Positions 25,140 through 60,067 of a DNA stretch of 64,000 nt are shown piece after piece. This stretch comes from an uncultured Gammaproteobacteria bacterium. GTDB taxonomy: Bacteria; Pseudomonadota; Gammaproteobacteria; Chromatiales; Chromatiaceae. Each line of letters starts with the position of its first letter. Within the stretch, counting starts at the first letter, position 1. The translations under genes were made by a program, and so were the position numbers. The stretch lies in NCBI GenBank assembly GCA_963709645.1, contig CAVPXP010000021.1:88445-152444 (forward strand). Reading direction: 5' to 3'. Under the pieces are notes generated by a model, which did no database searches, was not told the DNA's origin, and worked only from the letters and a program-made list of their open reading frames with translations.

Positions 25140-25202
25140 CGGCCCGCCTCAGCGCCCCACCACATCGACCCGAGTGTGCCCCGGATTCACGGCAACCCGA
25201 AT

Positions 25203-28050: not shown

Positions 28051-28057
28051 CCGATCC

Positions 28058-30102: not shown

Positions 30103-30193
30103 GGGTCGGACCACCGCCCAGTCGCGGGCCGCTCTTGCGACCGGAGGTGCAGCGGTGGCCCCTGTCCCCTATCCACCCCAGCCAGCGAGGGTC

Positions 30194-33738: not shown

Positions 33739-33748
33739 GGGGCGGGAC

Positions 33749-37432: not shown

Positions 37433-38868
37433 GATGTGGCGGCCCCGGCCGTTGCAGAGGCGCGGGTCCGCGCGGGCATTAGGGTGATCTCCACCCGGCG
37501 GTTCCTGGCGTCCCTGGGATTCTCCGGGACCCGCGGCTCGGTGTCGGCGCGGCCCTCAGTGACGAAGCGGCCCTGGTTTGCTGCTCGTGACCTCGATGAG
37601 CATGGTCGTGACTGACTCCGCGCGGGCTTGCGACAGGTGCCAATTCGACGGGAACTTGAGGCTCTTGATGGGGGCGCTGTCGGAGTGCCCGGTGACCAGT
37701 ACTCGCCCCGGCAGTTGCCCGAGGGCCTCGCCGATGCGCCGGATCACGGGCACAAAGTTGGGCTGGAGGTCGGCTCGGGCGGAGGCAAAGAGGCCGTCGC
37801 CCCGGATGATGACGGTCTGACCCTCGGGCCCGTCCACCACCTCCAGCCGTCCCGCGGCGATGTCGTCCGCAAGCAGAATGCGCAGCGTGATCGGCGGCGG
37901 TGCTGCTGGCTTCGGCTCGGGCTCTACTGGGGGTGAGACGGGTGGGGGCTCCACCCGGGGTATGGAGGCGACGGGGCGTTCCGGCATGGGCGGCAAGCCG
38001 CTTGTCGAGGGTGCTCAGGGACAGGAACACGGGGTCGGAGTCCCGGCTCAGCGCGAAGGTAAAGGCCGCGAACAGCGCCGAGCAGCAGGAGGCTCGGCCA
38101 GGCCGGCGAAGACCCACAGCGGGACCTGGTGGATCAAGGGGTCGCGACGCTCGGTGATCCCCCGCCAATGGGGCGAGAGCTCCCGCTCGGGCTCGCCCCG
38201 CTGGGTGCGTATGGTCTGGAAGAGTTGCTCGCGCACCCGCTCCAATTGGTCGCGGCCGCCGTCGCGTACCCGGTAGCGGCCCTCGAAGCCCAGGGCGAGG
38301 CAGAGGTACATGAGCTCCAGCAGGTGCAGGTTGCCGCTCGGGAATGCCAGCAGACGATCGAGCGCGTCGTAGAACTTCTCGCCGCCCCAGGTCTCGTTGT
38401 GGAAGCTGATCAGAAGCCCCGCTTGGCCCAGACGCTCTGGCTGCCCCAGGGGGTATCCAGCACCGACTCGTCCACCAGGGCACAGAGCACATAGCGGGCC
38501 GGCAGGACGATCGAGTCGGTGAACCCCTTGGCCCGGGCGCACTGCTCGAACTCGCGCATCTGGCCGATCAGCCGCTCGCGTAAGCCCGTCTGGGTCCGGG
38601 TGGGAGGCCGTGCCGCGCAATTGGCCCGCGACGGTGAGCAGGTTCGTGGCGCAGGCCACCAGCGGGTTGTCGGTGGTTGCACCCGGCAACGTACCGCTCA
38701 GGGCAGGATCCGGCGGGCGGTGTTGCAGGCTGGGCAGGGCCCGGGGGGGCGGCTGGGCCTGGCAGGATACCGGACGAGGTGCCGCCGGGCCGGCGGCCCC
38801 CCGGCATGGGCCGGATCACGGTGGGGCCCCCGTCGCCGCGGATTGAAGAAGGGATCGTCTTCGGTCAC
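37429..38868 (-). pseudogene. tssL: T6SS TssL (DotU) with C-terminal OmpA/MotB-like peptidoglycan-binding domain, several frameshifts
   Basis: GTG 38868 lies 3 nt after the tssK stop. DotU motifs NPLVACATNLLTVAGQLRG, ARYVLCALVDESVL, LELMYLCLALGFEGRYR. OmpA-like LVTGHSDSAPIKSLKFPSNWHLSQARAESV ... GRADTEPRVPENPRDARNRRVEITL. Stop overlaps the tssM ATG. Confidence 0.8.
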
Positions 38869-38871
38869 GGG

Positions 38872-40211
38872 TTACTCCCGGATCGCCCAGAGCTCGAGTT
38901 GAAGACCCGGAAACTCGCCGCCGATGTGCAGGCCGAACCCGCCGCTCGCAGCGAGCTGCTTCCAGAAGTCGCTCGGTGCGATCCAGCTCGAAATAGTCGA
39001 ACCCCGCAGTGGTAGGGGATCTCCAGCGGGGCCGTGGGCATGGGCCGCAGCGCGATGCCCGGCAGGGCCAGCTTGACCAGCTCCTGAATCTTGTCGATCG
39101 GCCCGATCTTGATCTGCGCCGGGAAGCGGTTGCGCAGCACCTGGGAGTCCACCTGGGCCTGCGCCGCCAGCACGAAGCGGGCGCTGGCGAGCAGCGAGCC
39201 GGTCCGCCACCAGGGCAACCCGAAAGCCGTACTTGCGTTCTTGGATGGGGATCGGTATCGCCCGCTCCACGGTCTCCCGGCTGAGATACTCGCGCAGCCG
39301 ATCGATCAGGGGGCTGAAGGTCGCCTCCAGGTCGTCGTGCCGGTAAGGTGGGAAGTCTGGCGGGCGCTTGGCATCACTGGCAAAGGTCGCCAGATCCCCG
39401 GCAAGCGCCAGCAGGGTGCGGTACAGGGCCTCCGGGTGGAGACCCTGGATTCTCGCCAGATGGATCGACGACGGGCTCGGCGCGATTGATCAGCTGCAGC
39501 AGGAGAAAGTCTGCCCAGTCGGACACACCGCCGCGGCCCACACCGCGCACCCGCCCGGCCCTGGATTCGGCCTGGCGGTGCAGCAGGCCCTGAAGTTCGT
39601 CGACGAAGGCGGCGAGCCGACCGGAGGCCCGGTAGTCGATACAGGGGGGGATGTAGGCGCTGTCGAGGACTGCCTGGCGGTCCGCCCGGCACTCCAGGAC
39701 GCGCGCCAGGCCGCAACAGGCGAACCCGTCCCGGGCGTCCCGGTCCCGCAGCAGGCGAAGGTCCAGGCGGCCGACCTCCATCAGGGTCTCGGTGCCCGGA
39801 CCCAGGGTGTTGTCCCGCACGGTGAGCTCACCGGCTCGATAGCGCAGCATGGTCTCGCGGGGCATCGGGCCCACCGCTCTCCGTTGCCCCAGGGCGGCCC
39901 AGCGGCAGGGCCAGGTAGACGATCTGACCCGCAGCGTCGTCCCCAAGGTCTAGGGGCGGCGGCAGGGGGTCGCTGGTGGGGGCGTCGAAGGGGGTGCCGT
40001 CGGGCAGGATGCCGGCACAGTCGGTGACGGCCAGTTTGCCCAGGGCCAGCAGGTCCTGGTCGATGGAGAGCCGCTTGAGCCCCCACGGATAGGGGGTGCC
40101 GATCCCAGCCTGAGCGCGGGTCAGCCGTTCGAGATAGCGGTCGTGCTGCTGAAAGTGATGAGGCTGCAGAAAGAGCCCCTCGGACCACAGCACCCGATTG
40201 TCCCAGGACAT
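38872..40211 (-). pseudogene. tssK: T6SS baseplate protein TssK, several frameshifts
   Basis: MSWDNRVLWSEGLFLQPHHFQQHDRYLE (hallmark N-terminus). The fragments 39374..39946, 38872..39270 and 38865..39218 continue the protein and end GGFGLHIGGEFPGLQLELWAIRE. Confidence 0.82.
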
Positions 40212-40222
40212 GGTCCGCCCCC

Positions 40223-40723
40223 TCAGCGCGGCTGGGCGCGGATGGCTTTGGGTCCTACCGCGACGTCGAGGTTGTTATCCTTGCCGTCGACGAGCGGAAC
40301 CAGGGCACGCCAGGTGGCGCGGTCGATGTCTCTGAACGCCCCGAGGACCCCCAGATAGCGGGCCTGCGGATTCAGCGGCTTGACGATTTGGCGCATCTGG
40401 CCGGGCGCTAGGGTAAGCTCCTCGCGAGCGATCAGCTCCCCGCCCAGGGCTTTTGCCTCCCGGTCATAAAGGCTGTAGAAGTCCGCCCCGCTGAAGGCCC
40501 CCTGGGCCTTGAGCTCGTAGAGGCGAACCACGATGGGTAGGCCCTGACCCGCAGGGCCTCGGTTGGCGTCTGCGGCCGCCGCGACGTCGACTCGCAATAC
40601 CGGGGCCGGCGCCGGGGGCTTGTCCTCCTTCGGCGGCTTTCCGCCGCAGGCCGGGAGGGTTGTCAGTGCGACTGCGGCCACCAGACTAAACAACAGCCGA
40701 CTGACTCGAATTGATTGTTCCAT
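40223..40723 (-). CDS. tssJ: T6SS lipoprotein TssJ
   Basis: Lipobox LTTLPAC. PIVVRLYELK...F..ADFYSLY pattern typical of TssJ. Confidence 0.85.
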   Translation of the reverse strand: MEQSIRVSRLLFSLVAAVALTTLPACGGKPPKEDKPPAPAPVLRVDVAAAADANRGPAGQGLPIVVRLYELKAQGAFSGADFYSLYDREAKALGGELIAREELTLAPGQMRQIVKPLNPQARYLGVLGAFRDIDRATWRALVPLVDGKDNNLDVAVGPKAIRAQPR

Positions 40724-40750
40724 GCGTTAGATCCCCGTTGTCGGTAGAGT

Positions 40751-42337
40751 TTAGGACGGTCGGCGTCCGCGGGCCTGCGCCAGGCGCAGGATCTGGTCCT
40801 CATAGGCGCGGGTGAATGCCTCGCCGAAGAGTTGCATGAAGTCCTCCGCCGCGTCCGCGGCGACCTGCCCATAGGTCTGCGTGAACTGGTCCCAATAGCG
40901 TGACTTTCGCGCCATGGGCAGGACCTTGTCGAGCCCGGATGCGGTGTCCAGGCGGGCCTCCAGGGCGCTCGGCTCGAACCGGGCCAGGAGTGCGCGCAGG
41001 GCTGCGCGCAACCCTGCGATCATGGCCATTTCGTGGGCCTGGATGTCGTCGAAGGCCTCCCGCGCCGCGTCCAGCGGGGGCATGTAAGCCGGATTGGGGC
41101 GCAGCAGCAGCCGCTCCATGGCCTCTTCCGGACTCACCGAGAATTTGAACGGGTTGTTCTCGGCCCGGCGTATGGTGGTGACCCCGAGGCGCAGCTCGCT
41201 CTTGAATTGGGAGCGGGCCATCATGGTGGTGGTGAGCCCGGCCGTCATTGCCCGCAGGAGGGCGCCCGCGTCGCGCAGGAAGGCCGCCGCATCCTTCACC
41301 TGCCCAGCGTCCCCGCTGCCGAGCCCGGCGAGGAAGGCTGCCAGAAGATCGTCGGATGCTGCTGCGGGGCCAGTTTGGAGCGCCGGCGAGGCGGGAGAAG
41401 GCTGAGGCGGGGATTGCGGCGCGACATGCGGAGGTGGCGCCGGCACCGGACCTGCTGGCTGGGGGCCCTGTGCGTCTGGTGCCGGGGGCACCGTAACGGG
41501 CCCTGGCATGTCGCCGGAACGCCCCTTGGCTGGGGTTACCGGGGGTTCGAATCCCTGTTCCAGGTCCAGATCGAGTGAAAAGTCCAGGTCCGGGCTGGGG
41601 ACAGGTTCGGGCTCCCTGGGGGGAGGTTGCGGGGGCTCGAAGGCGGGCCCTGGCAGGGGAGCGGGCGGTCCCCCGGCCGGGGCGCCGGTTGGCGTCGGCA
41701 GCGCGTCACTGAGCAGGTCGTACCCGTCTGGGATGGCTTGGATCTCCGGGGCGCGGAAGAAGACGTGCTCCACCGGGGTTGGGTGGGGCTCGGCCGCCCG
41801 TGGGCCCTCATCGACGGGTGCCGGGCCCGCGAGAAAGGGGTCCAAGGGGTGGGCGTCCGCGAATGGGTCCTCGGTCTGCCTTTGCTTATTTCCTGCGGGT
41901 TGTCCGCTGTTGCCCCCGAGCAGGTTCATGATGTCCGGTGCGCCGCCGGGACTGCCTATTCCTGGCATGGCCGCCTCATCCACCGCGAAGGGGTCAGTTT
42001 CCTTGACCCTTTCTCCCGAGTCGATGGAGACGGCAATCTCGTAGGGACCGACGGCAATGGTATCCCCGTCGTGGAGCGCCACCGGCTGGCTTGGCGGCAA
42101 GCGGTCCGCAGACTGATTGATGAAGGTACCGTTGGTGCTCTGGTCGATGAGCCAGACCCCGTCGTCGCGGATCTCGACACTGGCGTGGCGACTCGACACC
42201 AGGCGCTCCGGGTCACCCAGGACGAGGTCATTCTCCGGATTGCGCCCCAAGGCGTAGACGCCGCTGCCAACGTGAAGGCTCGCAGCTTGCTCGGGCGGCA
42301 GACCGCGGTAGCTTGTAACCTCCAGGTGAAGCTTCAT
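40751..42337 (-). CDS. tagH: T6SS-associated FHA-domain protein TagH (Fha)
   Basis: From MKLHLEVTS. FHA residues LGRNPENDLVL, VSSRHASVEI, STNGTFIN. Pro-rich linker and conserved TagH C-terminal domain (NNPFKFS...). The track ORF starts 69 nt upstream at 42406. Confidence 0.85.
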   Translation of the reverse strand: MKLHLEVTSYRGLPPEQAASLHVGSGVYALGRNPENDLVLGDPERLVSSRHASVEIRDDGVWLIDQSTNGTFINQSADRLPPSQPVALHDGDTIAVGPYEIAVSIDSGERVKETDPFAVDEAAMPGIGSPGGAPDIMNLLGGNSGQPAGNKQRQTEDPFADAHPLDPFLAGPAPVDEGPRAAEPHPTPVEHVFFRAPEIQAIPDGYDLLSDALPTPTGAPAGGPPAPLPGPAFEPPQPPPREPEPVPSPDLDFSLDLDLEQGFEPPVTPAKGRSGDMPGPVTVPPAPDAQGPQPAGPVPAPPPHVAPQSPPQPSPASPALQTGPAAASDDLLAAFLAGLGSGDAGQVKDAAAFLRDAGALLRAMTAGLTTTMMARSQFKSELRLGVTTIRRAENNPFKFSVSPEEAMERLLLRPNPAYMPPLDAAREAFDDIQAHEMAMIAGLRAALRALLARFEPSALEARLDTASGLDKVLPMARKSRYWDQFTQTYGQVAADAAEDFMQLFGEAFTRAYEDQILRLAQARGRRPS

Positions 42338-42752
42338 CCCCTCCCCTGCCACAGGCCGGCTCCCCCGGGCGCCGCTTTGGAGCCGCCAGAGCTCGTGGAT
42401 CGACAACGCCGAGGGCCGAACTCCATAACTGTCACCGATGTCACCGAATGGACACCCACTGGTTCAAATTTGAAAGATCGCCGCGAATGGAAAACGCGAT
42501 CGCGGATTGCAGCCCCGTCCAACGGCTCAGAGTATAGCGAAGGTCGAGGGCTCCCTTGCCATGGGTCTTGGGCGATGGCCGGGGATGCGACGGCGAGAAC
42601 CTCGATCCGAACACCCTTGCAGTCGGACATCTTCCGCCCTCGAAGCGATGGTGACCCGCAGCTTAGCCCAACGCGGCCGAATGAGGTACCGTCACAGGGC
42701 CCGGCGCGCCGATGCCCTAGCCGGGCCGCAGACCCAACCGACACGCTCAAGG

Positions 42753-43905
42753 GCGCCAGCAGTCGATTACACTGGGGCCGCCGAAGCCGATCCTGCGCGC
42801 CGGTTGCATCGGGGCCAGATGACTGCCTGGGGACGGAGCCGATCGATGAGTCCAGAAGATAACCGGGTCGTGACCCCCGAGGCCGCCGATGACGGCGGAG
42901 CGACGGTCGTGCGCCTGGATCCGGTTGCACCCCATGGCATTGCCCCCGGGACCCTGTTGGTCAACACCTACCGGGTCGAGCGCCTGCTCGGCGGCGGCGG
43001 CATGGGGGAGGTCTATCTGGCCCGCCATACCGGGCTTGAGACCCGGCACGCCATCAAGGTGATCCGCCCCGCCATGGCCATGAACCGCCAGGTCATGGAC
43101 CTCTTTTATCGCGAAGCGCGGGTACTGCGCGGGGTGCGCCACGACGCCGTGGTGAGCTACGACGGCTTCGTGCGAGACGACCAAGGGCGCGACTACCTGG
43201 TCATGGAGTATGTGGAGGGCTCCTCCCTCGCCGACCGGCTGCGCCGCGGGCCGCTCAACCCCGCAGAGGTACTCAGCCTGCGGGACCGGCTCGCCGCCGG
43301 GCTTGCCGAGGCCCACCGCTGTGGGGCGGTGCATCGGGACATCTCCCCGGACAACGTCATACTGCCCGGAGAGCGCATCGAAGCCGCCAAGCTCATCGAC
43401 TTCGGGGTTTGCAAACTCACCGACCCGACCCAGGAGACCATCATCGGCTCCTCCTTCGCCGGCAAATACCGCTACGCGTCGCCCGAGCAGCTTGGCCTGT
43501 TCGGGGGTGGAGTGGACGCCCGCTCCGACATCTACAGTCTGGGTCTGATTCTCGCCGCCGCCGCCCAGGGGCGCCCCCTGGGCATGGGCGACAGCATCGA
43601 GGGCGCGCTGCGCAGCCGCCAGAGCGTACCCGACCTCAGCGGGGTCCCCGCGGGTCTGCGCGACTGGCTCGTGGCGATGCTGCAACCCGACCCTGCGCAA
43701 CGCCCGGCCACCATGGAGGCGCTGCTCGAGCACTGGCCGGCGGCTGGCGGCGGGACGCAGCGGTCGCCGGGTCGCACCGCCACGGAGGCCGCGGCGCGCT
43801 CTGGCCGCGGCCGACGCGGGTTGACGTGGGCGATCGGGCTGGTGTCGCTCGTAGCCGTTGCCGGCGGCCTTTACTGGCTGCTGCGCCCGCTGCCAGTGGT
43901 GGAGC
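42753..43905 (+). repeat. direct repeat copy 1 (kinase 5' module)
   Basis: 42753-43810 matches 49597-50654 (offset 6844). I aligned both junctions nucleotide by nucleotide. Track ORFs in several frames on both strands are identical between copies (43193..43465 = 50037..50309; 43210..43548 = 50054..50392). About 90% identity continues to about 43905. Confidence 0.9.
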
Positions 43906-44996
43906 GCAACCTGGATGCTGCCGCTACCCGGGGTACTGGGGAGACCGAGGCCGTCGCCGTTAAGGACGCCGATGTCGGGCAAGGCCAAACCCTGCGGGAG
44001 CAGCCGCAGCAGGTGGCGGCTAGGCGGGATGACACGGCGCCGGACACATCCAAGGTGGAAGAGCGATCCCAGGTCGATGTCCAACCCGATACGGCGTCGG
44101 ATGGCACCCCTGAGCCTGCACCCGAAGAAGGTCCGTTGCCGAGGGCGGAAAAGCCGCCTGAGCGCGAAACAGTCATCCCTGGCACACGCTTCGCCGATCC
44201 CTTGGCGGGCGGCGGCTCGGGTCCGATTATGGTCTGGCTACCTGGAGGAGAGTTCCAGATGGGCTCCCCTCCGGAAGAGCCGGGTCGCAACCCAGACGAG
44301 CGACTCCATCTGGCACCGATTCCGGAGCCAATCGCGATGAGCGAGACCGAGATCACCCTGGGGCAGTTTCGGCAGTTCGTCCAGGCGACGGGTTACCGAA
44401 CCGAGGTCGACCGCGAATCCACCTGTCTGAGACCGGACGATGCCTGGCAGCAGCTTGTTCCCGACATGAGCCTTTCGTGGCAGTCCCCGGGTTACGAGGT
44501 CACCGACCGGCATCCCGTCGCGTGCGTCAACTGGAGTGATGCGCGGGCATACGCCAAGTGGCTCACGGATACGACGGGCAAAGACTATCGCTTGCCGACG
44601 GAGCAGGAGTGGGAGTACGCGGCCCGCGCGGGGACCCTCACAAGCCGCTTCTGGGGGGACGATCCCAAGGCAGGCTGCAATCTTGCAAACACGGCGGAGT
44701 GCAAAGACGACTATACCTATGCCGCTCCGGCCGGGACTTTCCCGCCCAACCTCTTCGGGCTGCGCGACATGCTGGGTAATCTCGCCGAATGGACTTGCTC
44801 TGAGTATGGGAAAGGCTACAGTGGCAGCGAGGCCCGGTGCAGCGAGGCCGGCGGAGCGTCACCGCGGGTCTTTCGTGGCGGCTCCTGGCTCGATGCCCCG
44901 GAGCTGGTACGGTCTGCCGCACGGGACGGCGCTCCAGCAAACCTCGGCCTCAACACCGTGGGTTTCCGTGTGGTCCGGACCCTGGGCCCTGAGTAG
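42819..44996 (+). CDS. Hanks-type Ser/Thr kinase with TM helix and periplasmic FGE-sulfatase (SUMF1/TagR-like) domain; PpkA-like by context
   Basis: GGGGMGEVYLARH, HAIKVIR, HRDISPDNVIL, IDFGVCK, YASPEQ. TM WAIGLVSLVAVAGGLYWLL. FGE motifs RLPTEQEWEYAARAG, GNLAEWT, FRGGSWL, GFRVVR. Alternative ATG at 42846. Confidence 0.88.
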   Translation: MTAWGRSRSMSPEDNRVVTPEAADDGGATVVRLDPVAPHGIAPGTLLVNTYRVERLLGGGGMGEVYLARHTGLETRHAIKVIRPAMAMNRQVMDLFYREARVLRGVRHDAVVSYDGFVRDDQGRDYLVMEYVEGSSLADRLRRGPLNPAEVLSLRDRLAAGLAEAHRCGAVHRDISPDNVILPGERIEAAKLIDFGVCKLTDPTQETIIGSSFAGKYRYASPEQLGLFGGGVDARSDIYSLGLILAAAAQGRPLGMGDSIEGALRSRQSVPDLSGVPAGLRDWLVAMLQPDPAQRPATMEALLEHWPAAGGGTQRSPGRTATEAAARSGRGRRGLTWAIGLVSLVAVAGGLYWLLRPLPVVERNLDAAATRGTGETEAVAVKDADVGQGQTLREQPQQVAARRDDTAPDTSKVEERSQVDVQPDTASDGTPEPAPEEGPLPRAEKPPERETVIPGTRFADPLAGGGSGPIMVWLPGGEFQMGSPPEEPGRNPDERLHLAPIPEPIAMSETEITLGQFRQFVQATGYRTEVDRESTCLRPDDAWQQLVPDMSLSWQSPGYEVTDRHPVACVNWSDARAYAKWLTDTTGKDYRLPTEQEWEYAARAGTLTSRFWGDDPKAGCNLANTAECKDDYTYAAPAGTFPPNLFGLRDMLGNLAEWTCSEYGKGYSGSEARCSEAGGASPRVFRGGSWLDAPELVRSAARDGAPANLGLNTVGFRVVRTLGPE

Positions 44997-49596: not shown

Positions 49597-50749
49597 GCGC
49601 CAGCAGTCGATTACACTGGGGCCGCCGAAGCCGATCCTGCGCGCCGGTTGCATCGGGGCCAGATGACTGCCTGGGGACGGAGCCGATCGATGAGTCCAGA
49701 AGATAACCGGGTCGTGACCCCCGAGGCCGCCGATGACGGCGGAGCGACGGTCGTGCGCCTGGATCCGGTTGCACCCCATGGCATTGCCCCCGGGACCCTG
49801 TTGGTCAACACCTACCGGGTCGAGCGCCTGCTCGGCGGCGGCGGCATGGGGGAGGTCTATCTGGCCCGCCATACCGGGCTTGAGACCCGGCACGCCATCA
49901 AGGTGATCCGCCCCGCCATGGCCATGAACCGCCAGGTCATGGACCTCTTTTATCGCGAAGCGCGGGTACTGCGCGGGGTGCGCCACGACGCCGTGGTGAG
50001 CTACGACGGCTTCGTGCGAGACGACCAAGGGCGCGACTACCTGGTCATGGAGTATGTGGAGGGCTCCTCCCTCGCCGACCGGCTGCGCCGCGGGCCGCTC
50101 AACCCCGCAGAGGTACTCAGCCTGCGGGACCGGCTCGCCGCCGGGCTTGCCGAGGCCCACCGCTGTGGGGCGGTGCATCGGGACATCTCCCCGGACAACG
50201 TCATACTGCCCGGAGAGCGCATCGAAGCCGCCAAGCTCATCGACTTCGGGGTTTGCAAACTCACCGACCCGACCCAGGAGACCATCATCGGCTCCTCCTT
50301 CGCCGGCAAATACCGCTACGCGTCGCCCGAGCAGCTTGGCCTGTTCGGGGGTGGAGTGGACGCCCGCTCCGACATCTACAGTCTGGGTCTGATTCTCGCC
50401 GCCGCCGCCCAGGGGCGCCCCCTGGGCATGGGCGACAGCATCGAGGGCGCGCTGCGCAGCCGCCAGAGCGTACCCGACCTCAGCGGGGTCCCCGCGGGTC
50501 TGCGCGACTGGCTCGTGGCGATGCTGCAACCCGACCCTGCGCAACGCCCGGCCACCATGGAGGCGCTGCTCGAGCACTGGCCGGCGGCTGGCGGCGGGAC
50601 GCAGCGGTCGCCGGGTCGCACCGCCACGGAGGCCGCGGCGCGCTCTGGCCGCGGTAGGCGCGGGTTGATGTGGGCGATCGGGCTGGTGTTGCTCGTCGCC
50701 ATTGCCGGCGGTCTTTACTGGCTGCTGCGACCGCTGCCAGTAGTGGAGC
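49597..50749 (+). repeat. direct repeat copy 2 (kinase 5' module)
   Basis: See copy 1. The first mismatch is at 50655 versus 43811, just before the TM helix codons. Confidence 0.9.
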
Positions 50750-51181
50750 CCCAACCGGAGCCAGTACCCAACCGCAACCGCAACCGCAACCCCAACCGCA
50801 ACCCCTGCCATGGGGGAACTCCGTGACCTAATCCGCGAGGGCCGACTGGATGACGCCTTCGCGCTGGCCCAGGACCGCTTGAGCGCCGGGAGGCCACCCC
50901 CGGCAGAGGATCTCTGGGCACTGGGCCAAGGGTTGCTCAAGGCGCGGCGACTCGATCAAGCCTTCGCCCTGATCCGGGAGCTGGCGAACGCCGGACACGG
51001 CCCCGCTGCCTTCGCCTTGGCAGAGATGTACGATCCGTTGCATTGGTCCAAGGACAACTCGCCCTTCTCCAAGCCCAATGGGGCCAAGGCGCGAGACTGG
51101 TACCGTCGTGCTGCCGAGGCTGGGGTGCCAGACGCCGATGCGCGACTCAAGGCCGTCGATAGTGCCGAGGAGGCGCCATGA
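49663..51181 (+). pseudogene. Hanks-type Ser/Thr kinase paralog with TM, Pro-Gln linker and Sel1-like periplasmic domain; one frameshift near 50767
   Basis: The kinase domain is residue-identical to 42819..44996 up to GRGRRGL. TM WAIGLVLLVAIAGGLYWLL. The (CAACCG)n tract reads PNRNRNRN in the track frame and PQPQPQPQPQPLPWGELRDL in the frame of ORF 50810..51181 (AAFALAEMYDP...ARDWYRRAAEAG). Confidence 0.8.
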
Positions 51182-53202
51182 TGCATATGTCGACCCGCCT
51201 CGGGGTTGTGGCAAGGGTCCTTGCGGTAGTCCTGGTCGGCCTCGGAGCCGCGGCGGCTGCGGCTGCCGAGCGGCAGGCCCTGCCCATGCCGGGCAAGACC
51301 AGCCTCTATCAGCGGGTGTTGACCCGCCCCGGCGCCGCTCTGCGGGATGCCCCGAGCACGACGGCCCGGCGCGGTGCCGAGGTGCCGCCGCTGAGCGTCT
51401 TCCACGTCTACGACCGGCGGCAGGTCCAGGGCTCGGACTGGCTGGAGTTGGGCACCGCCGCCGCGGATGCCGCTGTCGGCTGGCTCGCGGCGGCCGAGGT
51501 CATCGACTGGCGTCAGACCCTCACTGTCGCCTTCACGCGTAACGCCGATCGGGAGCCGGCCCTATTCTTTCGTGAGCGGGGGGGGCTGATGGGGCTACTT
51601 GAGTCCGAGACCCTGGTACCGGAGACTGAGCGCCTGCGTGCGGCGATTCGGGAGGGCCGGATCCCGGAGGGATTTCCGGTGATCGCCAAGGAGCCGGATA
51701 CCTATGTGGATCCTAACCGCCAATTCTATCTGCTGCCGATCCTGGCTCACGAGCAGGTCGACCTGGAAAGCGGCCTGCGTGCGACGGTCTTGGATGTGGC
51801 GGCGGTGACGCTCCAGGCAGGGGATCCGGACCTGCTCGCCCAGGGTGCGGGGGGCGGCGGCGGTGCGTCAGCGGGGACAGGGGATGCCCCGGCTGGGGCG
51901 CCTGCGGACTATCGTGCCGGGGTGGTCTTCGTGGTCGACACCACAACCTCCATGGGTCCCTACATCGACCGCACCCGCGCGGCCATCCGCCGCATCTACG
52001 ATCGGCTCAAGGGCTCGCCGATGGGCGACGCACTGAGCTTCGGACTGGTAGCCTTTCGGGACAACACCGAGGTGACCCCCGGCCTGGAGTATGTAAGCCG
52101 GGTGGCTGCCACCCTGGAGGACGGCCGGGACCCGTCGGGCTTCTTCGGCAAGGTGAACCGCGTGGAGGCGACCAATGTCTCCAGCCGGGGGTTCAACGAG
52201 GATGCGTTTGCCGGGGTCTACGACGCCATCGAGTCCATCGACTGGCGGGGCTACGCGGGCCGTTTCGTCGTGCTGATCACCGACGCCGGCGCGCGCGAGG
52301 CCAATGACCCCCTATCGCGCACCCACCTGGGGGCCGAGCGCCTGCGCCTCCTGGCCCAGGAAAAGGACCAGACTGCCGGCGGCGGCAAGATCGCCATCGC
52401 GGCCCTGCACCTCCTCACCCCAGAGGGCCGCCAGACCCATCAGCTCGCCGCTGCCCAGTATCACACCCTGACCCGCTGGGGTGACGCCGGTGACCTCTAT
52501 TTCCCGGTGAAGGGGGGCTCGGTGGATGCCTTCGGCTCCCAGGTGGATGCGCTTGCCGACGCCCTGGTGCAGCAACTGGAGGGCATCCGCTCGGGCCGAA
52601 TCATTCAGGTGCCCGAGGGACCTCAGGCCACTGAGGTGGAGCGCAAGACCGCCCTGGTCGGGCGTGCCATGCAGCTCGCCTATCTGGGGCGGGAGGCCGG
52701 TAGCCGGGCGCCGCGCCTGATCGATGGCTGGGTCAGCGACCGCGACCTCACGGACCCGTCCCAGAAGGTTCTGGAGGTGCGGGTCCTCATCGGCAAGAAC
52801 CAGTTGAGCAACCTCCAGGAGACCCTGGAGGCCATCGTTGCCGCCGGGGAGCGTACCACCATGACCGCCAAGGACTTCTTCGGCCAGTTGCGGGGTGCCG
52901 CGGCGGCCCTGGCTCGTGACCCGGACAAGGTCAGCACGTTGCAGGTGAAGCGCCTGGCGGATGTGGGCCTGGTGGGGGAGTGGCTGGACGATCTGCCCTA
53001 CACCAGCCAGATCATGAATCTTACCGAGTCCCGTTGGCTGGCGCGCTCCTACGCGGAGCAACAAGAGGTGCTGGACGCCATCGAGGAGAAGATCCGGCTC
53101 TACCGCCGCATCCATGACGATACGGACCGTTGGATCGATCTGAGCGGGCGCGCCTCCAAGGGCGAGTCGGTCACCACCATCCCCTTGGACGCCCTGCCCT
53201 GA
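51178..53202 (+). CDS. secreted/periplasmic vWA-domain protein
   Basis: Signal VLAVVLVGLGAAAAAAA. MIDAS-type VVFVVDTTTSMGPY, then VVLITDAG. Long helical C-terminal region. ATG overlaps the kinase stop (ATGA). Confidence 0.8.
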   Translation: MMHMSTRLGVVARVLAVVLVGLGAAAAAAAERQALPMPGKTSLYQRVLTRPGAALRDAPSTTARRGAEVPPLSVFHVYDRRQVQGSDWLELGTAAADAAVGWLAAAEVIDWRQTLTVAFTRNADREPALFFRERGGLMGLLESETLVPETERLRAAIREGRIPEGFPVIAKEPDTYVDPNRQFYLLPILAHEQVDLESGLRATVLDVAAVTLQAGDPDLLAQGAGGGGGASAGTGDAPAGAPADYRAGVVFVVDTTTSMGPYIDRTRAAIRRIYDRLKGSPMGDALSFGLVAFRDNTEVTPGLEYVSRVAATLEDGRDPSGFFGKVNRVEATNVSSRGFNEDAFAGVYDAIESIDWRGYAGRFVVLITDAGAREANDPLSRTHLGAERLRLLAQEKDQTAGGGKIAIAALHLLTPEGRQTHQLAAAQYHTLTRWGDAGDLYFPVKGGSVDAFGSQVDALADALVQQLEGIRSGRIIQVPEGPQATEVERKTALVGRAMQLAYLGREAGSRAPRLIDGWVSDRDLTDPSQKVLEVRVLIGKNQLSNLQETLEAIVAAGERTTMTAKDFFGQLRGAAAALARDPDKVSTLQVKRLADVGLVGEWLDDLPYTSQIMNLTESRWLARSYAEQQEVLDAIEEKIRLYRRIHDDTDRWIDLSGRASKGESVTTIPLDALP

Positions 53203-53930
53203 TGGCCCCCTCGCCGCCGGTCTATCTGTGCCGGGCACTTGTGAAGCGTCGGCAGGCAGGGGGAACCCGATTCGAGCTCCTGGTGCCGGAGCTGAGGGTC
53301 CGCCCGGGGGAGGTGGTAGTCCTGCGCGGCCAGAGCGGCTGCGGCAAGAGCACCCTCCTCGACCTGCTCGCGTTTGCGCTCAGGCCCGACGGCGCCGAGA
53401 CCTTCAGTTTTCATCCGGAGCACCGTCAGCCCACGGATCTGCTCCGGCTCTGGGGGCGGCGCGACCTGGACGGGCTCGGGCGGCTGCGTGGCGCCCACGT
53501 CGGCTATGTGCTCCAGACGGGCGGACTCTTGCCCTTCCTTACCGCCCGGGAGAATATCGCCCTGTCCTGCCGCCTGTTGGGGCAGGACCCGGCCGGTCTC
53601 GTCGAGCGCCTCGCGGAGCGGCTGGGCATCGGCCCGCAGCTCGACAAGAATCCAGGCCAGCTCTCGGTGGGGGAGCGCCAGCGGGTCGCCATCGCCCGCG
53701 CCCTGGCTCACCGCCCGAGTGTGCTGCTGGCGGATGAGCCTACGGCCTCGGTGGACCCGGTGAATGCGGCCGCTATCCTGGATCTGCTCTTGGAACTGGT
53801 GCGCCAGGCGGGGGTGACCGCGGTGATCGCGAGCCACGACTGGCACCCGGACGGGATCCCCGGGGTCCAGGTGCTCGAGCACCGCATCGAGCGCGACGGC
53901 GAGACCACGCGATCGCTGTTCTGGAACTGA
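53202..53930 (+). CDS. ABC transporter ATP-binding protein (LolD/MacB-type; TagT-like by context)
   Basis: Walker A GQSGCGKST, signature LSVGERQRVAIARAL, Walker B VLLADEPTASVD. Start overlaps the vWA stop (TGATG). Confidence 0.88.
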   Translation: MAPSPPVYLCRALVKRRQAGGTRFELLVPELRVRPGEVVVLRGQSGCGKSTLLDLLAFALRPDGAETFSFHPEHRQPTDLLRLWGRRDLDGLGRLRGAHVGYVLQTGGLLPFLTARENIALSCRLLGQDPAGLVERLAERLGIGPQLDKNPGQLSVGERQRVAIARALAHRPSVLLADEPTASVDPVNAAAILDLLLELVRQAGVTAVIASHDWHPDGIPGVQVLEHRIERDGETTRSLFWN

Positions 53931-53937
53931 CGATCCC

Positions 53938-55156
53938 ATGCGCCCCAATCGGGAGATCCTGCGCCTGGCGTATCGGGACTTCGCTCACGAGCGGCGTATC
54001 TCGCTGTGCTTCGTGCTTGGCCTTGATGGCGGTGCTGGCGCCGCTACTGGTCCTGTTCGGTCTCAAGTTCGGTCTGGTGGACACCCTGGCCCAGCGCCTG
54101 GTCGAATCGCCTGCCAATCGGGAGGTCTTGGCGGTGGGCAGTCGGAGCTTCGACGAGGCCTGGTTCGCCCGCATTGCGGCCCGAGCGGACGTGGCCTTCG
54201 TGGTCCCCAACACCCGTCGCATCGCCGCAAGCCTCAGCCGGCTCATGAGTCCCTCCAAGGGGACCGAACTGCGCGCCCTGCAGATGATCCCCACGGGCGC
54301 GGGCGACCCCCTGCTCGGGGCCCCTGGCCTTGCACCCTCCGGTGTGACTGAGCTGGTCCTTTCCGCGGCTGCGGCGCGCAAGCTGGCGGCCGTACCGGGT
54401 GACCGGCTGGTGGCGCGCATCGACCGCCACCGCAACGGCCAGGACGAGGGCGTGGTATGGGAGCTGACCGTCACCGGGGTCCTGGCCCCAGAGGCCCTGG
54501 TGGAGGAGGCGGCCCTGGTGCCCCTGGCGCTTCTGGTCGCCACCGAGGACTATCGGGACGGGGTCGCGGTGCCGGAGTTGGGCTGGGAGGGCTCCGAGCC
54601 CCCGCCCCGCCCCCGGACCTATGCCCGGTTCCGGCTCTATGCGACCAGCATCTACAAGGTGGCCGAACTGGCCGCGGATCTGACCGCCGAAGGCATCGAG
54701 GTGCGTACCCAGGTGGCCGAGATCGCCGCGGTGCAGTCCCTGGATCGGAACTTGACCCGGGTCTTCTGGCTGATTGCCCTGATCGGGACACTGGGCTTTC
54801 TGGCCTCGCTCGCGGCCAACCTGCTGGCCAACGTGGAGCGCAAGCGCCGGGAACTGTCCATCGTCCGGCTGATCGGCTTTCCAACCCTGAGCCTGGTCCT
54901 GTTCCCGGTGACCCAGGCGGTGTTGGTGGCGATGCTGGGTGCCCTTGCTGCACTGGCCCTGTACCTGCCTGTCGCTACCGCGCTGAACGGCTGGTTCGCC
55001 GAAAGCCTGCAACCGGGGGAATCCATTTGCCGGCTGCTGCCCGGTCACGTCATGAGTGCGCTCGCTGCGACTTTGCTCGGTGCGGCGGCCTCGGCCGCCT
55101 GGGCCGGCTGGCGAGCGGCGCGCATCGAGCCTGCCGAGGGACTGAGAGATGTCTAG
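53938..55156 (+). pseudogene. FtsX-like ABC permease (TagS-like by context), one frameshift near 54015
   Basis: MRPNREILRLAYRDFAHERRISLCFVLG in frame 53938, continuing as LMAVLAPLLVLFGLKFGL in frame 54017. Large periplasmic loop. C-terminal FtsX helices RKRRELSIVRLIGF... Confidence 0.8.
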
Positions 55157-56816
55157 TGTATCTTTTGCGCGGTTGCTGGCTGCCCTGTTCGGGACCCTTG
55201 TCCTGGCGCTGGGCTCCGGCCTGGCCTCTGCCGATCAGGCCGCGGGGCCCGTGACCTGGCCGGAGAAGTTCTTCAACCCGACGCCGGCGGCCGATGATCT
55301 GGTGCTGCCCCTGGCGTGCGGCGGCGCCATGGTCTTTCGCCCCGTGGAGATCCCCTCCGACAACCTGTTGGACGACCGTCAGGTGGAACTCGGCCAGAGC
55401 GATGCCGATCGCGGTTACAAGGAGGGTCGGCGTTTGAGCCACCTGGCCGGCGCATTCTCGGAGCCGTCATCGGCGGCGCGCCGATACTACATCGCCAAAT
55501 ACGAGACGACCCGCGATCAATACGCCGCCCTGACCGCTGAGACCTGCCCCACACCCTCGATGCAGGGACGTTTGCCCATGACGGAGGTTAGTTGGTTCGA
55601 TGCGGTGGACCTGGCGCGCCGCTACACGGAGTGGCTGCTCGCCCACGCGCCCGACGCCATGCCCCGGGAAGATCGCGAGCCGGGTTTCCTGCGCCTGCCC
55701 ACGGAAGAGGAGTGGGAGTTCGCCGCCCGCGGGGGGCTGATGGTCGACGAGACGGACTTTCTGGCCCCCGTCTTTCCCATGCCCGAGGGCGACCTCGCAC
55801 GCTATGCCTGGTTCGAGAGCACCCGTTCCGCGGAGGGCAGCCTCCACCCCGTCGGGCTGCTGAAGCCCAATCCCCTGGGCCTTCACGACATCCTCGGCAA
55901 CGCCGCCGAGATGACCCTGGTTCCCTTCCACCTGGATCGACGGGGCCGCCCCCACGGTCAGGCCGGTGGATTCGTCAGCCGCGGCGGCGACGTCTTCACC
56001 CCCGAGAGCCAGCTGGGCAGTGCCGTGCGCCAGGAGCACAACTATTTCAACGGCGCAACCGGGCGCGCCAAGACGCTGGACAGCCTGGGCTTCCGTTTGG
56101 TGCTGACGGCCCCGGTGATCGTCTCCCCCCAGCGCCTGGACGCGATCAAGCAGGCCTGGTCGGTGTTGCCCGCCCTGACCGGGGATGCGGGGGGCGATGC
56201 GGCTCAGGCCCTCGCGGACCTCCGACAGTTGGCCGAGCAGTCCCAGGACCAGGCACTGCGCGCCCGTCTGGAACTGATTCAGCGAGACATGGAGCGGAGC
56301 CAGTCTGCGATCAACGAGGCCCGCGCCCGTACCATGCGCGCCCTCCTGCGCCTCGGTGCCTTTCTCGGGAAGCGGGTGGTCACGGACCGACAGAAGGCGC
56401 GGGCTATCGAGCAGCTTATCGGGCTTGCAGAGGGCCGCTTCGATCGCTTCGCTGCGGAAGTCTCCGGCCGGCAAGGCTCTGACGCGGCGATCGATGAGGC
56501 CCGCGCGTCCCTCAAGGACAAGATGGCGAAGTGGCAGACACAGCTCGATGAGATCCGTGAGAGTCTGGACAATAGCCTGTCCTATTACGGCGATACGGTG
56601 ATTGGCGTGGGTCGGGATTTCGGAGAGCAGGAGGTGGGAGCGGGGATCGAGGTCGTGAACGATGAGTTTCACCTGAAGCAGAACGCCTACTTGATCCCAT
56701 ACGCGGCGCAGTTCGTGGCACACATGGCGGCCTACCGTCTCAATGGACAAGCGGACAAGGGTTCCTGGCTTGGCGACCTTGATCGGATCGGTGCCGAACG
56801 AGGGCCAGTACCCTGA
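55149..56816 (+). CDS. periplasmic FGE-sulfatase (SUMF1) domain protein with C-terminal coiled coil (TagR-like by context)
   Basis: Signal LLAALFGTLVLALGSGLASA. FGE motifs YYIAKYETT, RLPTEEEWEFAARGG, GNAAEMT, GFRLVL. About 200-aa helical tail. 8-nt overlap with the permease gene. Confidence 0.8.
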   Translation: MSSVSFARLLAALFGTLVLALGSGLASADQAAGPVTWPEKFFNPTPAADDLVLPLACGGAMVFRPVEIPSDNLLDDRQVELGQSDADRGYKEGRRLSHLAGAFSEPSSAARRYYIAKYETTRDQYAALTAETCPTPSMQGRLPMTEVSWFDAVDLARRYTEWLLAHAPDAMPREDREPGFLRLPTEEEWEFAARGGLMVDETDFLAPVFPMPEGDLARYAWFESTRSAEGSLHPVGLLKPNPLGLHDILGNAAEMTLVPFHLDRRGRPHGQAGGFVSRGGDVFTPESQLGSAVRQEHNYFNGATGRAKTLDSLGFRLVLTAPVIVSPQRLDAIKQAWSVLPALTGDAGGDAAQALADLRQLAEQSQDQALRARLELIQRDMERSQSAINEARARTMRALLRLGAFLGKRVVTDRQKARAIEQLIGLAEGRFDRFAAEVSGRQGSDAAIDEARASLKDKMAKWQTQLDEIRESLDNSLSYYGDTVIGVGRDFGEQEVGAGIEVVNDEFHLKQNAYLIPYAAQFVAHMAAYRLNGQADKGSWLGDLDRIGAERGPVP

Positions 56817-57156: not shown

Positions 57157-57945
57157 TTAGTCGATCTCTCGTACGTGCATCTGCACATTACCGATGTCAA
57201 TGACGTCTCCGACCGTGAGGGGATGGCTGGGCAACACCTGCTTTTGGTTGACAAAGGTTCCATTCGCGCTGCCAAGATCCGTCAGTGTCAGCGCGATCTT
57301 CCCGCCAGACCGGCCGACCGAAATCTTGGCGTGCTGGCGAGATATGCAATCGTCATTGATCTGCAGGTCGACATTCTCGGAACGTCCGATAATCGCCCCA
57401 TGCCGGATTTGCAGCCGTTGCTCGAAACCCGACCCGACCCGCGGCTGTACGAAAAACAAAACGCTGGCCTGTCGGTACGCGGGGATAATCGTGGTTGGCT
57501 GAGGGTCCACAATGGAGCCGTGCTGGACCGCAGACAGCGTCAGCGACTCGGGCGGCACACCCAGGATAAGCGCCAGCAATCGTTGGCCCGCACGGTCAGC
57601 ATCCCTGCGGAAATCGATAAATTGAACGGTCCCGAGTTTTAGGTGGACTTCGCCGGGTTCGCAGGTCCTGGTCATCAGCGGGATAACACGTCCACGCATA
57701 TGCTCCAGGGCCCAATGAGTCTCTGCCTGAACCCATTCCGACCTTTGGGCGTCAGGTGACAGGACGACGATAAACCAGTCGGCTTGCACCAGCGCCTCAC
57801 GGATTTGCCTTTGCCAGTCGTTAGCCGTTCTGATGTGGGTTGCGGAGCACCAGGTGATTACGCCCTGCCCGCCAAACAATGGCTGGAGCTGGTTGCGAAC
57901 AAAATCAACGTCCTTGCTCGAATGACTGATGAAGAGCCGGGTCAT
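57157..57945 (-). CDS. TIR domain - FHA domain fusion protein
   Basis: From ATG 57945. TIR_2-like MTRLFISHSSKDVDFV...DWFIVVLSPDAQRSEWVQAETHWAL. FHA AIIGRSENVDLQINDDCISRQHAKI...LGSANGTFVNQKQV. The sampled line 57361-57420 is about 58% G+C against about 75% for 51241-51300. Confidence 0.8.
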   Translation of the reverse strand: MTRLFISHSSKDVDFVRNQLQPLFGGQGVITWCSATHIRTANDWQRQIREALVQADWFIVVLSPDAQRSEWVQAETHWALEHMRGRVIPLMTRTCEPGEVHLKLGTVQFIDFRRDADRAGQRLLALILGVPPESLTLSAVQHGSIVDPQPTTIIPAYRQASVLFFVQPRVGSGFEQRLQIRHGAIIGRSENVDLQINDDCISRQHAKISVGRSGGKIALTLTDLGSANGTFVNQKQVLPSHPLTVGDVIDIGNVQMHVREID

Positions 57946-58731: not shown

Positions 58732-59478
58732 TTGTCTGGCGTCGCCCCCGCATTTGCGGCTGCCGTGATTCTGATGGGAGGGTGCGTCAGCACCGGGGAT
58801 CGGGTTGGCGAGTCCGTCTCCGGTGCCGGGTCCTGGATGAGCGGGCTCACCGGCGGGGCGTCCACGACGGCTGCACCGGACAGTTCGCTCACCCCTGCCG
58901 AACAACGCCTGCGAAAACAGAGCCAGGCGTTCCAGAAAACGGTGTGGGAAGGGGTCCTGATCGGCGCCAGCGCTGGTGCGCTGTTGGGCATCTTCCAGGG
59001 TAAGGATACAGAGGGGATCCTCAAAAGGGCCCTGATCGGCGGGGCAGTGGGCGGCCTGGCCGGGGCCTACGTTGCCAGCAAACAGAAGCAATACTCGGAC
59101 AAGGAGGACCAGCTCGATTCGATGATTGCTGACGTGCAGCAGTCGAACAAAGAGACCGAGGAGCTGATTGGCAGCGCGCGGCAGGTCCTGGCCGAAGACA
59201 AGCGTCGCCTCGCCTCCGTGCGGAGCCGCTACAAGGCAGGGCAGGCCTCGGAGGCGGATCTGACGAGTACCCGCAGTCGTGTTTCGGAGAACGAGGCCGT
59301 GGTTAGCCAGGCCACCAAGGGCGCGCGGGAGAAATACTCCATGTTCGAGGGCGCCGAGCGGGAGTACCGACAGCAGAACCCCGGCACAGATACAGCTGGC
59401 CTGCAGAAGGAGCTCCGGGCCTATAACCAGCAAATCGAGACCCTGGATGGCCTCGCGAACACGGTCTCGGCAGCCTAG
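58732..59478 (+). CDS. lipoprotein with glycine-zipper segment and coiled-coil C-terminus
   Basis: Lipobox VILMGGC. Glycine zipper GVLIGASAGALLGIF...LIGGAVGGLAGAYVA. The TTG start at 58732 is uncertain. Confidence 0.6.
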   Translation: MSGVAPAFAAAVILMGGCVSTGDRVGESVSGAGSWMSGLTGGASTTAAPDSSLTPAEQRLRKQSQAFQKTVWEGVLIGASAGALLGIFQGKDTEGILKRALIGGAVGGLAGAYVASKQKQYSDKEDQLDSMIADVQQSNKETEELIGSARQVLAEDKRRLASVRSRYKAGQASEADLTSTRSRVSENEAVVSQATKGAREKYSMFEGAEREYRQQNPGTDTAGLQKELRAYNQQIETLDGLANTVSAA

Positions 59479-59488
59479 GGAGCTGGCA

Positions 59489-60067
59489 ATGAAGCGATCC
59501 GATGGTGGCAAGGGCACGGACTCCAGGTTGTACGCTGCGGCCTCGGCCATGGGGCGCTGGCGCGGCTGGGTCCTATCTGCCGGCATCTCCATCTTTGCGG
59601 CCGGGTGCGCGACCAGTGTCGATCCCCACGAGGGCGGCTTCGTGAGCGGGGTCGTGGGCCTGGCTGGCGGCGGTTACCAGCGTCGCGTCGACGAGCGGGA
59701 GGGCGTCCACCAGGGCGAGCTGAGTGCTCAGCAGCGGCTCAATGCGCAGGCGAGCGCGCTCGAGCAGGAACGGGCTCAGGTGAGAGGAGACCTGGGGCGT
59801 GCACAGTCCCGCCTGGCGAACCAGGAGCGCAGAATCGCCGCAGAGCGCTCGCGTCTGAGGGCCGAGAGCAAGAGCTCTGCTACCCAGGCGAGCCTGCACC
59901 GACTCGATCAGGCACAGGCACGCGTAACGAGTACTAAAGATCAGCTGCGGGGGGTTCGGCCGGACGAGCAGCCAGTGACGGACCTCAGGACCAGATCCCA
60001 GGGAATCCAGAAGGAGCTGGACGAGATCGACAGCATGGTGAGCGTGGTGTCCGGGAGCCGGTTCTAG
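59489..60067 (+). CDS. coiled-coil lipoprotein
   Basis: ATG 59489, lipobox SIFAAGC, then heptad-rich QQRLNAQASALEQERAQVRGDLGRAQSRLANQERRIAAERSRL. Confidence 0.6.
   Translation: MKRSDGGKGTDSRLYAAASAMGRWRGWVLSAGISIFAAGCATSVDPHEGGFVSGVVGLAGGGYQRRVDEREGVHQGELSAQQRLNAQASALEQERAQVRGDLGRAQSRLANQERRIAAERSRLRAESKSSATQASLHRLDQAQARVTSTKDQLRGVRPDEQPVTDLRTRSQGIQKELDEIDSMVSVVSGSRF

Follow-up and report, generated by a model that had tools for sequence, protein, structure and literature searches.

A split PpkA in a probable variant of the T6SS threonine-phosphorylation sensor module of an uncultured Chromatiaceae bacterium

What does the sensor kinase PpkA of type VI secretion systems (T6SS) look like when its two halves are encoded by separate genes, and do the genes around such a kinase still serve the T6SS? 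This question is raised by a block of genes lying at 49.6-56.8 kb on the + strand of a 64,000-nt stretch of DNA from an uncultured Chromatiaceae bacterium (contig CAVPXP010000021.1, positions 88,445 to 152,444; the whole stretch is referred to here as the window). The window is part of a 4.2-Mb, 50-contig metagenome-assembled genome (MAG; G000) with an estimated completeness of 84%. In the current model for Pseudomonas, membrane damage leads to a 2:2 complex of TagQ and TagR that binds two PpkA periplasmic domains and thereby dimerises the kinase (PMC13713981). The ATPase activity of TagS/TagT is needed in a manner that is not yet worked out (PMC13713981), and according to a 2026 review TagQRST has been studied in Pseudomonas only (PMC13584744). 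An earlier note, made from the sequence of the window alone, had proposed that the block is a variant input module of the threonine-phosphorylation pathway (TPP) in which the Pseudomonas components are re-partitioned. To follow up this proposal, the window genes were compared with L003, a locus of a close relative with intact orthologues; with a reference cluster in a 6.5-Mb genome (G526), whose TagQ scores 508 bits against an NCBIfam equivalog cut-off of 300; and with a survey in which one genome per species was scanned and 80 named loci were retrieved and sorted by tblastn and open reading frame (ORF) continuity.

The Pfam domains found consecutively along the block are Pkinase (133 bits), a weak vWA (18-20 bits, below threshold), ABC_tran (91 bits), FtsX (29 bits) and FGE-sulfatase (91 bits). 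The features of the block are as follows:

49690..50826, + strand: Ser/Thr kinase part A, with a Hanks kinase domain, one transmembrane (TM) helix and the first part of a Pro-rich linker; ends at TGA 50824-50826
50755..50815, + strand: frame-break zone within a (CAACCG)n-like linker tract; frame 1 gives way to frame 2, net +1
50810..51181, + strand: kinase part B, a periplasmic Sel1-like domain without a signal peptide of its own
51178..53202, + strand: periplasmic vWA protein of 674 aa with a signal-peptide-like N-terminus, homologous to the whole PpkA ectodomain
53202..53930, + strand: TagT-like ABC ATPase, 242 aa
53938..55156, + strand: TagS-like FtsX permease, 405 aa if read through; extra T at ~54017
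55149..56816, + strand: TagR-like periplasmic FGE-sulfatase-fold protein of 555 aa, with a signal-peptide-like N-terminus and a helical C-terminal half

The genes are tightly packed. The kinase and vWA genes overlap at an ATGA (51178-51181) with GAGGAGG just upstream; the vWA and ABC genes meet in a TGATG (53200-53204), where stop and start codon (the ATG at 53202) share 1 nt; a gap of 7 nt parts the ABC gene from the permease gene (53930 to 53938); and the permease and FGE genes overlap by 8 nt (55149-55156). On re-reading of the sequence all four junctions proved to be exactly where the earlier note had placed them. The same-strand block that it described is real, but neither the kinase nor the permease is one continuous frame in this sequence, and the kinase start that it gave at 49663 is better replaced by the ATG at 49690, which has GGAG upstream and fits the N-terminus of the homologues. 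The conserved unit is also larger than the five genes first listed, as two lipoprotein genes come after the FGE gene in many relatives. A scan for internal promoters and terminators in the operon gave none that were convincing, though the scan was uninformative.

The kinase and vWA genes together correspond to PpkA. The intact L003 kinase (521 aa) shares 80.5% identity with part A of the window kinase, whose translation contains the motifs GGGGMGEVY (GxGxxG), AIK, HRD, DFG and SPE plus a TM helix; part B is 74.6% identical to residues 399-520 of the same L003 kinase. The latter part is a domain of ~120 aa whose profile matches Sel1-repeat structures (8sxq at E = 4e-13), so the Sel1-like ectodomain suggested at first sight holds, whereas the "Pro-Gln linker" suggested along with it exists in the third frame only. 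The vWA call for the 674-aa protein, which its Pfam score left below threshold, is settled by its predicted structure (mean pLDDT 72.6), which matches integrin I and vWA domains with a TM-score of ~0.75. This protein is 39% identical to residues 378-992 of the PpkA of G526 (E = 1e-144), and the L003 vWA protein gives 40% against the same C-terminal region (E = 1e-142). When the PpkA periplasmic region was searched against the window genome, the 674-aa protein was its sole match. The link first drawn between the vWA protein and the periplasmic region of PpkA is thus borne out over ~640 aa. No solved structure matching the PpkA-ectodomain profile by sequence was found.

Further evidence comes from two uncultured relatives that possess fused PpkA-like proteins, P0094 (995 aa) and P0093 (1021 aa); the P0094 locus reads tagF-[kinase-vWA]-ABC-FtsX-FGE. 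Residues 14-360 of the window kinase align with residues 2-339 of P0094 at 56% identity, and residues 23-674 of the window vWA protein align with residues 357-995 at 56% identity as well. Since both window genes align end to end with P0094, they equal one PpkA-like protein, and the proposed re-partitioning of PpkA is matched by an actual fused homologue. At the site of the Sel1-like domain in the split kinase, the fused protein has a mere linker that runs straight into the vWA region; the free vWA protein, for its part, has gained a signal-peptide-like N-terminus relative to the fused form. Kinase and vWA ectodomain are separate genes in the window and likewise in 12 surveyed species, unlike in PpkA proper. 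The split architecture explains why such vWA proteins are called "PpkA" by one annotation pipeline and "vWA domain-containing protein" by others.

The three genes downstream are the counterparts of tagT, tagS and tagR. The L003 ABC ATPase is 48% identical to the TagT of G526, the L003 permease is 44% identical to TagS, and for the L003 FGE protein and TagR the identity is 31% across residues 41-546 of 564. In reciprocal terms, TagT finds the operon ABC ATPase as its best match in the window genome (182 bits, the next ABC ATPase scoring 100), TagS finds the operon permease as its sole match (216-259 bits), and TagR finds the operon FGE protein (208 bits, the next at 56). The order of the operon is collinear with ppkA-tagT-tagS-tagR as found in G526, where the cluster runs fha-tssJ-tssK-tssL-tssM-tagF-pppA-ppkA(992 aa)-tagT-tagS-tagR-tagQ on a single strand. 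The TagT, TagS and TagR assignments made earlier from the sequence are therefore upheld by the comparison with a tagQ-containing T6SS cluster, by the best matches and by the collinearity. No NCBIfam model that names the vWA, FtsX or FGE proteins was found.

The named homologues of the window genes belong to Thiocystis, Chromatium, Thiodictyon, Lamprocystis and Allochromatium. Counting the survey loci with at least 8 kb of upstream sequence, the adjacency to T6SS genes was distributed as follows:

fused PpkA: 6 loci, 6 T6SS-adjacent
split kinase and vWA: 12 loci, 6 T6SS-adjacent
no kinase: 49 loci, 0 T6SS-adjacent

Kinase-bearing forms are thus next to T6SS genes in 12/18 loci and kinase-less forms in 0/49 (Fisher p = 3e-9). 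All 12 split kinases had the Sel1-like domain, and all 6 fused proteins lacked it. In kinase-less loci the gene 5' of the vWA gene often encodes a small protein whose short N-terminus is followed by a TM helix, a Pro-rich linker and the same Sel1-like domain; the carriers of such modules include many Pseudomonas species and Methylococcus capsulatus. Among the split loci, that of Inquilinus limosus has the pair in the canonical slot (tssJKLM-tagF-pp2c-kinase-vWA-ABC-FtsX), while 6/12 are unlinked to T6SS genes. Solitary split operons occur in Chromatium okenii, in C. weissei, in Thiocystis violascens (both a MAG and the complete genome) and in Allochromatium warmingii.

Two further observations were made during the survey. 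At loci of Pseudomonas spp. (L124, L126, L128-L131, L136-L138, L141, L142, L146, L149 and L150) a second, kinase-less vWA-ABC-FtsX-FGE module was seen, with a vWA protein ~38-41% identical to that of the window and no T6SS genes within 10 kb. In the Thiodictyon-like loci L019 (G042) and L020 (G147), vWA and ABC genes were present at 66-79% identity, and adjoining FtsX, FGE and kinase genes were undetected.

Taken together, the block is probably a split-PpkA version of the T6SS TPP sensor module. The TPP-variant reading remains the best one because the kinase-bearing forms are so strongly T6SS-linked, and the earlier proposal of a variant TPP input module is to this extent supported; no description of split or T6SS-free forms of the sensor module was found in the literature. 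The neighbours that bear on this reading are the following:

32234..42406, - strand: T6SS sub-cluster fha-tssJ-tssK-tssL-tssM-tagF-pppA, from Pfam matches, in the same order as in G526
40751-42406, - strand: fha, ~7 kb from the operon
57157..57945, - strand: TIR-FHA gene, convergent to the operon (TIR_2 78 bits, FHA 67 bits)
58732..59478, + strand: glycine-zipper, coiled-coil lipoprotein, a TagQ-like candidate; lipobox seen in the translation
59489..60064, + strand: second small lipoprotein ("h191"), 63.5% identical to hyp191 of L003

The operon lies on the far side of tagH (fha) from pppA, as had been stated, and in the closest relatives (L003, L071 and L074) it is directly divergent from fha, head to head. 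The glycine-zipper lipoprotein has homologues directly 3' of the FGE gene in at least 27 loci, and the pair that it forms with h191 is met again 3' of the FGE gene in both Gamma- and Alphaproteobacteria. Against the NCBIfam model for TagQ (NF041250, VI_TagQ) it scores 45 bits (E = 7e-12; cut-off 300), with similarly weak matches in 25 other genomes. Its lipobox, glycine zipper and coiled coil and the post-FGE position in relatives are all in line with TagQ, but the assignment stays tentative because blastp of the glycine-zipper lipoproteins against TagQ gave nothing significant. Counterparts of the TIR-FHA gene lie at this site in L001 (T. violascens), L068 and L071; the L003 copy has lost most of its TIR part and encodes an FHA-only protein of 125 aa. 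The TIR-FHA protein is a possible phospho-threonine-dependent output.

By analogy with P. aeruginosa (PMC13713981), the module may work as follows. The genes would be expressed from a single transcript. The product of the kinase gene would join a Hanks kinase in the cytoplasm, through a TM helix and a variable Pro-rich linker, to a small Sel1-like domain in the periplasm, and the vWA gene, translationally coupled to it by the ATGA, would supply the rest of PpkA (~640 aa) as a free periplasmic protein. Upon damage to the outer membrane, a complex of lipoprotein and TagR-like protein would form and engage the free vWA protein. The latter could then dock on the Sel1-like domain and so bring two kinase molecules together; clustering of the kinase would be followed by autophosphorylation and by phosphorylation of a partner with an FHA domain. 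Candidate partners are the Fha/TagH of the neighbouring T6SS sub-cluster, where the reaction would be reversed by PppA, and possibly the adjacent TIR-FHA protein. We infer the adaptor role of the Sel1-like domain because it occurs strictly with an unfused vWA protein, because a fused homologue exists, and because the kinase and vWA genes overlap at the ATGA.

A number of observations weigh against the assignment to the TPP. The kinase domain of Pseudomonas PpkA shares only 33% identity with the operon kinase, against 51% with another kinase at the end of the window. The similarity of the lipoprotein to TagQ is sub-threshold and rests mainly on the glycine zipper. Both the kinase and the permease are frame-broken in this assembly, and these breaks, if real, would take the Sel1-like domain off the kinase and the N-terminus off TagS. 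In Allochromatium warmingii DSM 173 (G028), whose genome is 99% complete, the full split operon is found with neither TssC nor TssK, and seven module-bearing genomes in all are without both; the operon in T6SS-less genomes, which the earlier note had named as an outcome that would speak against its proposal, thus exists in part, as A. warmingii and the kinase-less forms common in T6SS-free contexts demonstrate. When the wide vWA family was compared with TssC across 151 family genomes, both occurred in 24 as against 23.3 expected, a null result; the T6SS link is visible only after the family is split by architecture, since at the family level no co-occurrence with TssC is seen. Lastly, the presumed T6SS target may itself be defective: tssK, tssL and tssM (33749-40211, - strand), which are 60-65% identical to the intact L003 genes, show at least 9 frame changes in 6.5 kb relative to them, a rate ~11x that of the genome (P = 2e-7), and a search of the 84%-complete genome gave no second copy of tssJKLM or fha. 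Decay of the T6SS membrane complex is one possible cause, and a locally poor assembly of this stretch is another. The TssC genes of the window genome are on other contigs. A dedicated T6SS role in this organism is not assured: it is called into question by the carrier without T6SS markers, by the large number of kinase-less relatives, by the TIR-FHA gene next to the operon and by the damage to tssKLM.

In an alternative reading the module is an autonomous envelope machine, made up of a TM-Sel1 anchor, the vWA protein, the TagT/TagS-like ABC pair, the FGE protein and the lipoproteins, whose main job is not T6SS control. In this lineage the kinase would then couple it to other FHA outputs, chiefly the TIR-FHA protein (likely an NAD-consuming effector), and the adjacency to T6SS genes would be incidental or vestigial. 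The absence of a kinase from 49/67 of the surveyed loci, none of them near T6SS genes, speaks for this alternative, as do the seven genomes without TssC and TssK, the TIR-FHA gene that faces the operon in the window as well as in L068, L071 and T. violascens, the frame-broken tssKLM of the window, and the reported interactors of TagS/TagT outside the T6SS (PMC13713981). Against it speak the association of the kinase-bearing forms with T6SS genes (12/18 versus 0/49), the split form of Inquilinus in the canonical slot downstream of pppA, the head-to-head arrangement with fha in the nearest relatives, and the lack of a TIR-FHA gene in most split loci. On balance we consider it unlikely, though it is the strongest of the rivals to the split-PpkA reading.

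Could the operon instead be in the process of being lost? Neither 49663-51181 (1519 nt) nor 53938-55156 (1219 nt) has a length divisible by 3. Three-frame translation showed that the kinase frame stops at 50826 and that another frame, from 50810 on, encodes the Sel1-like domain; by tblastn the N-terminus of the permease (53938-~54017) is out of frame with the remainder (54017-55156; frames 1 and 2). In the DNA alignment the latter shift is one extra T at ~54017, after residue ~27, where the window has GCTTGG and three relatives have GC-TGG. Every kinase in the relatives examined is intact, one ORF of 517-545 aa running through a hypervariable linker, and the permease is intact in every one of them as well (405-420 aa). 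To obtain a genome-wide background, the conserved genes were compared by tblastn with a same-genus genome: 20 frame changes were found in 52,278 aligned codons, affecting 15/109 genes (~14%) on many contigs, which amounts to ~0.13 per kb or ~1 per 8 kb of coding sequence. The two breaks in the 7.1 kb of the operon are within chance expectation (P = 0.23). Since the genome-wide rate is already high, the two breaks in the operon do not allow a call of pseudogene and are best taken as probable consensus errors; pseudogene calls anywhere in this genome assembly need read support. In a blastn tally of insertions and deletions against same-genus DNA, alignments of non-coding and diverged sequence confounded the counts too much for a homopolymer bias to show. 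For the (CAACCG)n tract, programmed frameshifting and phase variation were also considered; both were rejected because slippage by a hexamer keeps the frame and the linkers of the relatives are unrelated.

If the two breaks were nevertheless real mutations, the block would be decaying along with its neighbours, the genes of the T6SS membrane complex. Such a course would fit the interruptions of the kinase linker and of tagS and the at least 9 frame changes in tssK, tssL and tssM, as well as the lower identity to L003 of the T6SS genes (60-65%) than of the operon genes (80-90%). However, the breaks in the operon do not exceed the genomic background, the vWA, ABC and FGE genes (4.4 kb) are unbroken and 83-90% identical to L003, and both breaks are single-base length changes at short homopolymers of the kind typical of MAG consensus errors. 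We regard decay of the operon as very unlikely.

The ABC ATPase gives generic matches of 115-129 bits to the DevA, FtsE and LolD models, whose cut-offs are 265-308. Among the LolD equivalogs it reaches 115.5 bits for TIGR02211 (cut-off 307.75) and 103.7 for NF008639 (cut-off 360), and for the MacB model NF007826 it reaches 88.9 bits (cut-off 966), with ATPase and permease on separate genes. The last alternative, that the generic matches betray an ordinary LolCDE- or MacB-type exporter adjoining unrelated kinase and vWA genes by chance, is extremely improbable: all these scores are far below their cut-offs; permease and ATPase pair specifically with TagS and TagT by large margins; the order vWA-ABC-FtsX is kept in all 80 loci except two, in which ABC and FtsX are on the opposite strand; and a fused kinase-vWA homologue exists.

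The kinase of the operon, read here as one half of a split PpkA, is not the only one of its kind in the window. A direct repeat and a paralogous kinase were found:

42753-43905 (copy 1) and 49597..50749 (copy 2), + strand: direct repeat of 1153 bp, 99.1% identity by blastn, no gaps
42846..44996, + strand: paralogous kinase with an FGE-sulfatase ectodomain (Pkinase and FGE-sulfatase), divergent from fha

The repeat spans the 5' leader together with the kinase domain and TM helix, and its mismatches all lie in the last ~95 bp. Through it the two kinases share leader and catalytic domain and differ in their ectodomains (FGE-sulfatase versus Sel1-like). Between the two copies lie 5.7 kb with the FGE ectodomain, a Sel1 protein, an autotransporter and a hydrolase; L003, L071 and L074 do not have this stretch, and in them fha is immediately next to the operon.

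Two other systems of the window were recorded as observations in their own right. A Ser/Thr kinase ("kinase2") extends from 63529 to the end of the window at 64000 and onward (C21:152135-154366, - strand of the genome contig) and has Pkinase and DUF8082 in relatives; its synteny is kept in L003 and L068, and here it looks frame-broken or tandemly duplicated. It is one piece of this gene that is 51% identical to the Pseudomonas PpkA kinase domain, as against the 33% of the operon kinase. A Bat/MoxR-type operon at 24105-32107 (+ strand), convergent to pppA and consisting of MoxR AAA_3, DUF58, two vWA proteins and BatD, is a separate vWA system that is unrelated to the split-kinase module.

The findings bear on how PpkA is activated, as the parts played by TagR, TagS/TagT and the ectodomain are still an open question in Pseudomonas (PMC13713981). 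Because the split form separates the two halves of PpkA, dimerisation mediated by the ectodomain becomes directly testable. Moreover, the same sensor genes are common without a kinase and were never T6SS-linked in the survey, even within Pseudomonas, which bears on what TagS/TagT do. Tentatively, and with somewhat less than even confidence, one may go further and suppose that the vWA, TagT/TagS-like ABC, TagR-like FGE and lipoprotein set, together with a TM-anchored Sel1-like adaptor, is an old and widespread stand-alone machine for envelope surveillance. Fusion of a kinase to the adaptor (the split form) or to the vWA protein (PpkA) would have come later, wiring the machine to T6SS firing and here also to a TIR-FHA effector. 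If so, the TPP of Pseudomonas would be one derived use of a general damage sensor, the split operon would be a natural intermediate, and the contacts proposed between TagR, ectodomain and kinase would be separable.

Compared with the TPP module of the P. aeruginosa H1-T6SS (TagQRST-PpkA-PppA-Fha1), the window operon has the same families in the order ppkA-tagT-tagS-tagR, followed by the candidate tagQ, and fha-tssJKLM-tagF-pppA is nearby in the same internal order. It differs in that PpkA is split into a kinase-TM-Sel1-like protein and a free periplasmic vWA protein, in that a block of the window type is divergent from fha instead of downstream of pppA, in that the TagQ counterpart is weakly similar and is parted from the FGE gene by the TIR-FHA gene, and in that there is a second kinase with an FGE ectodomain on the same catalytic module. 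The fused proteins P0093 and P0094 (locus L065, tagF-ppkA-tagT-tagS-tagR) are of the same kinase subfamily and are followed by the same ABC, FtsX and FGE genes; unlike the window pair, each is one polypeptide with no Sel1-like domain. The kinase-less modules of Pseudomonas migulae, Methylococcus capsulatus and Rhodospirillaceae share the order of the vWA, TagT-, TagS- and TagR-like genes and are often preceded by the small TM protein with the same Sel1-like domain, but they are without a kinase domain and were in no case (0/49) T6SS-adjacent. Finally, the operon resembles the type VII ABC systems LolCDE and MacB in that an FtsX-fold permease is paired with a LolD- or MacB-like ATPase, although its periplasmic partners (vWA, FGE and Sel1) are unrelated to lipoprotein release or efflux; the pairing suggests mechanotransmission rather than transport across the inner membrane.

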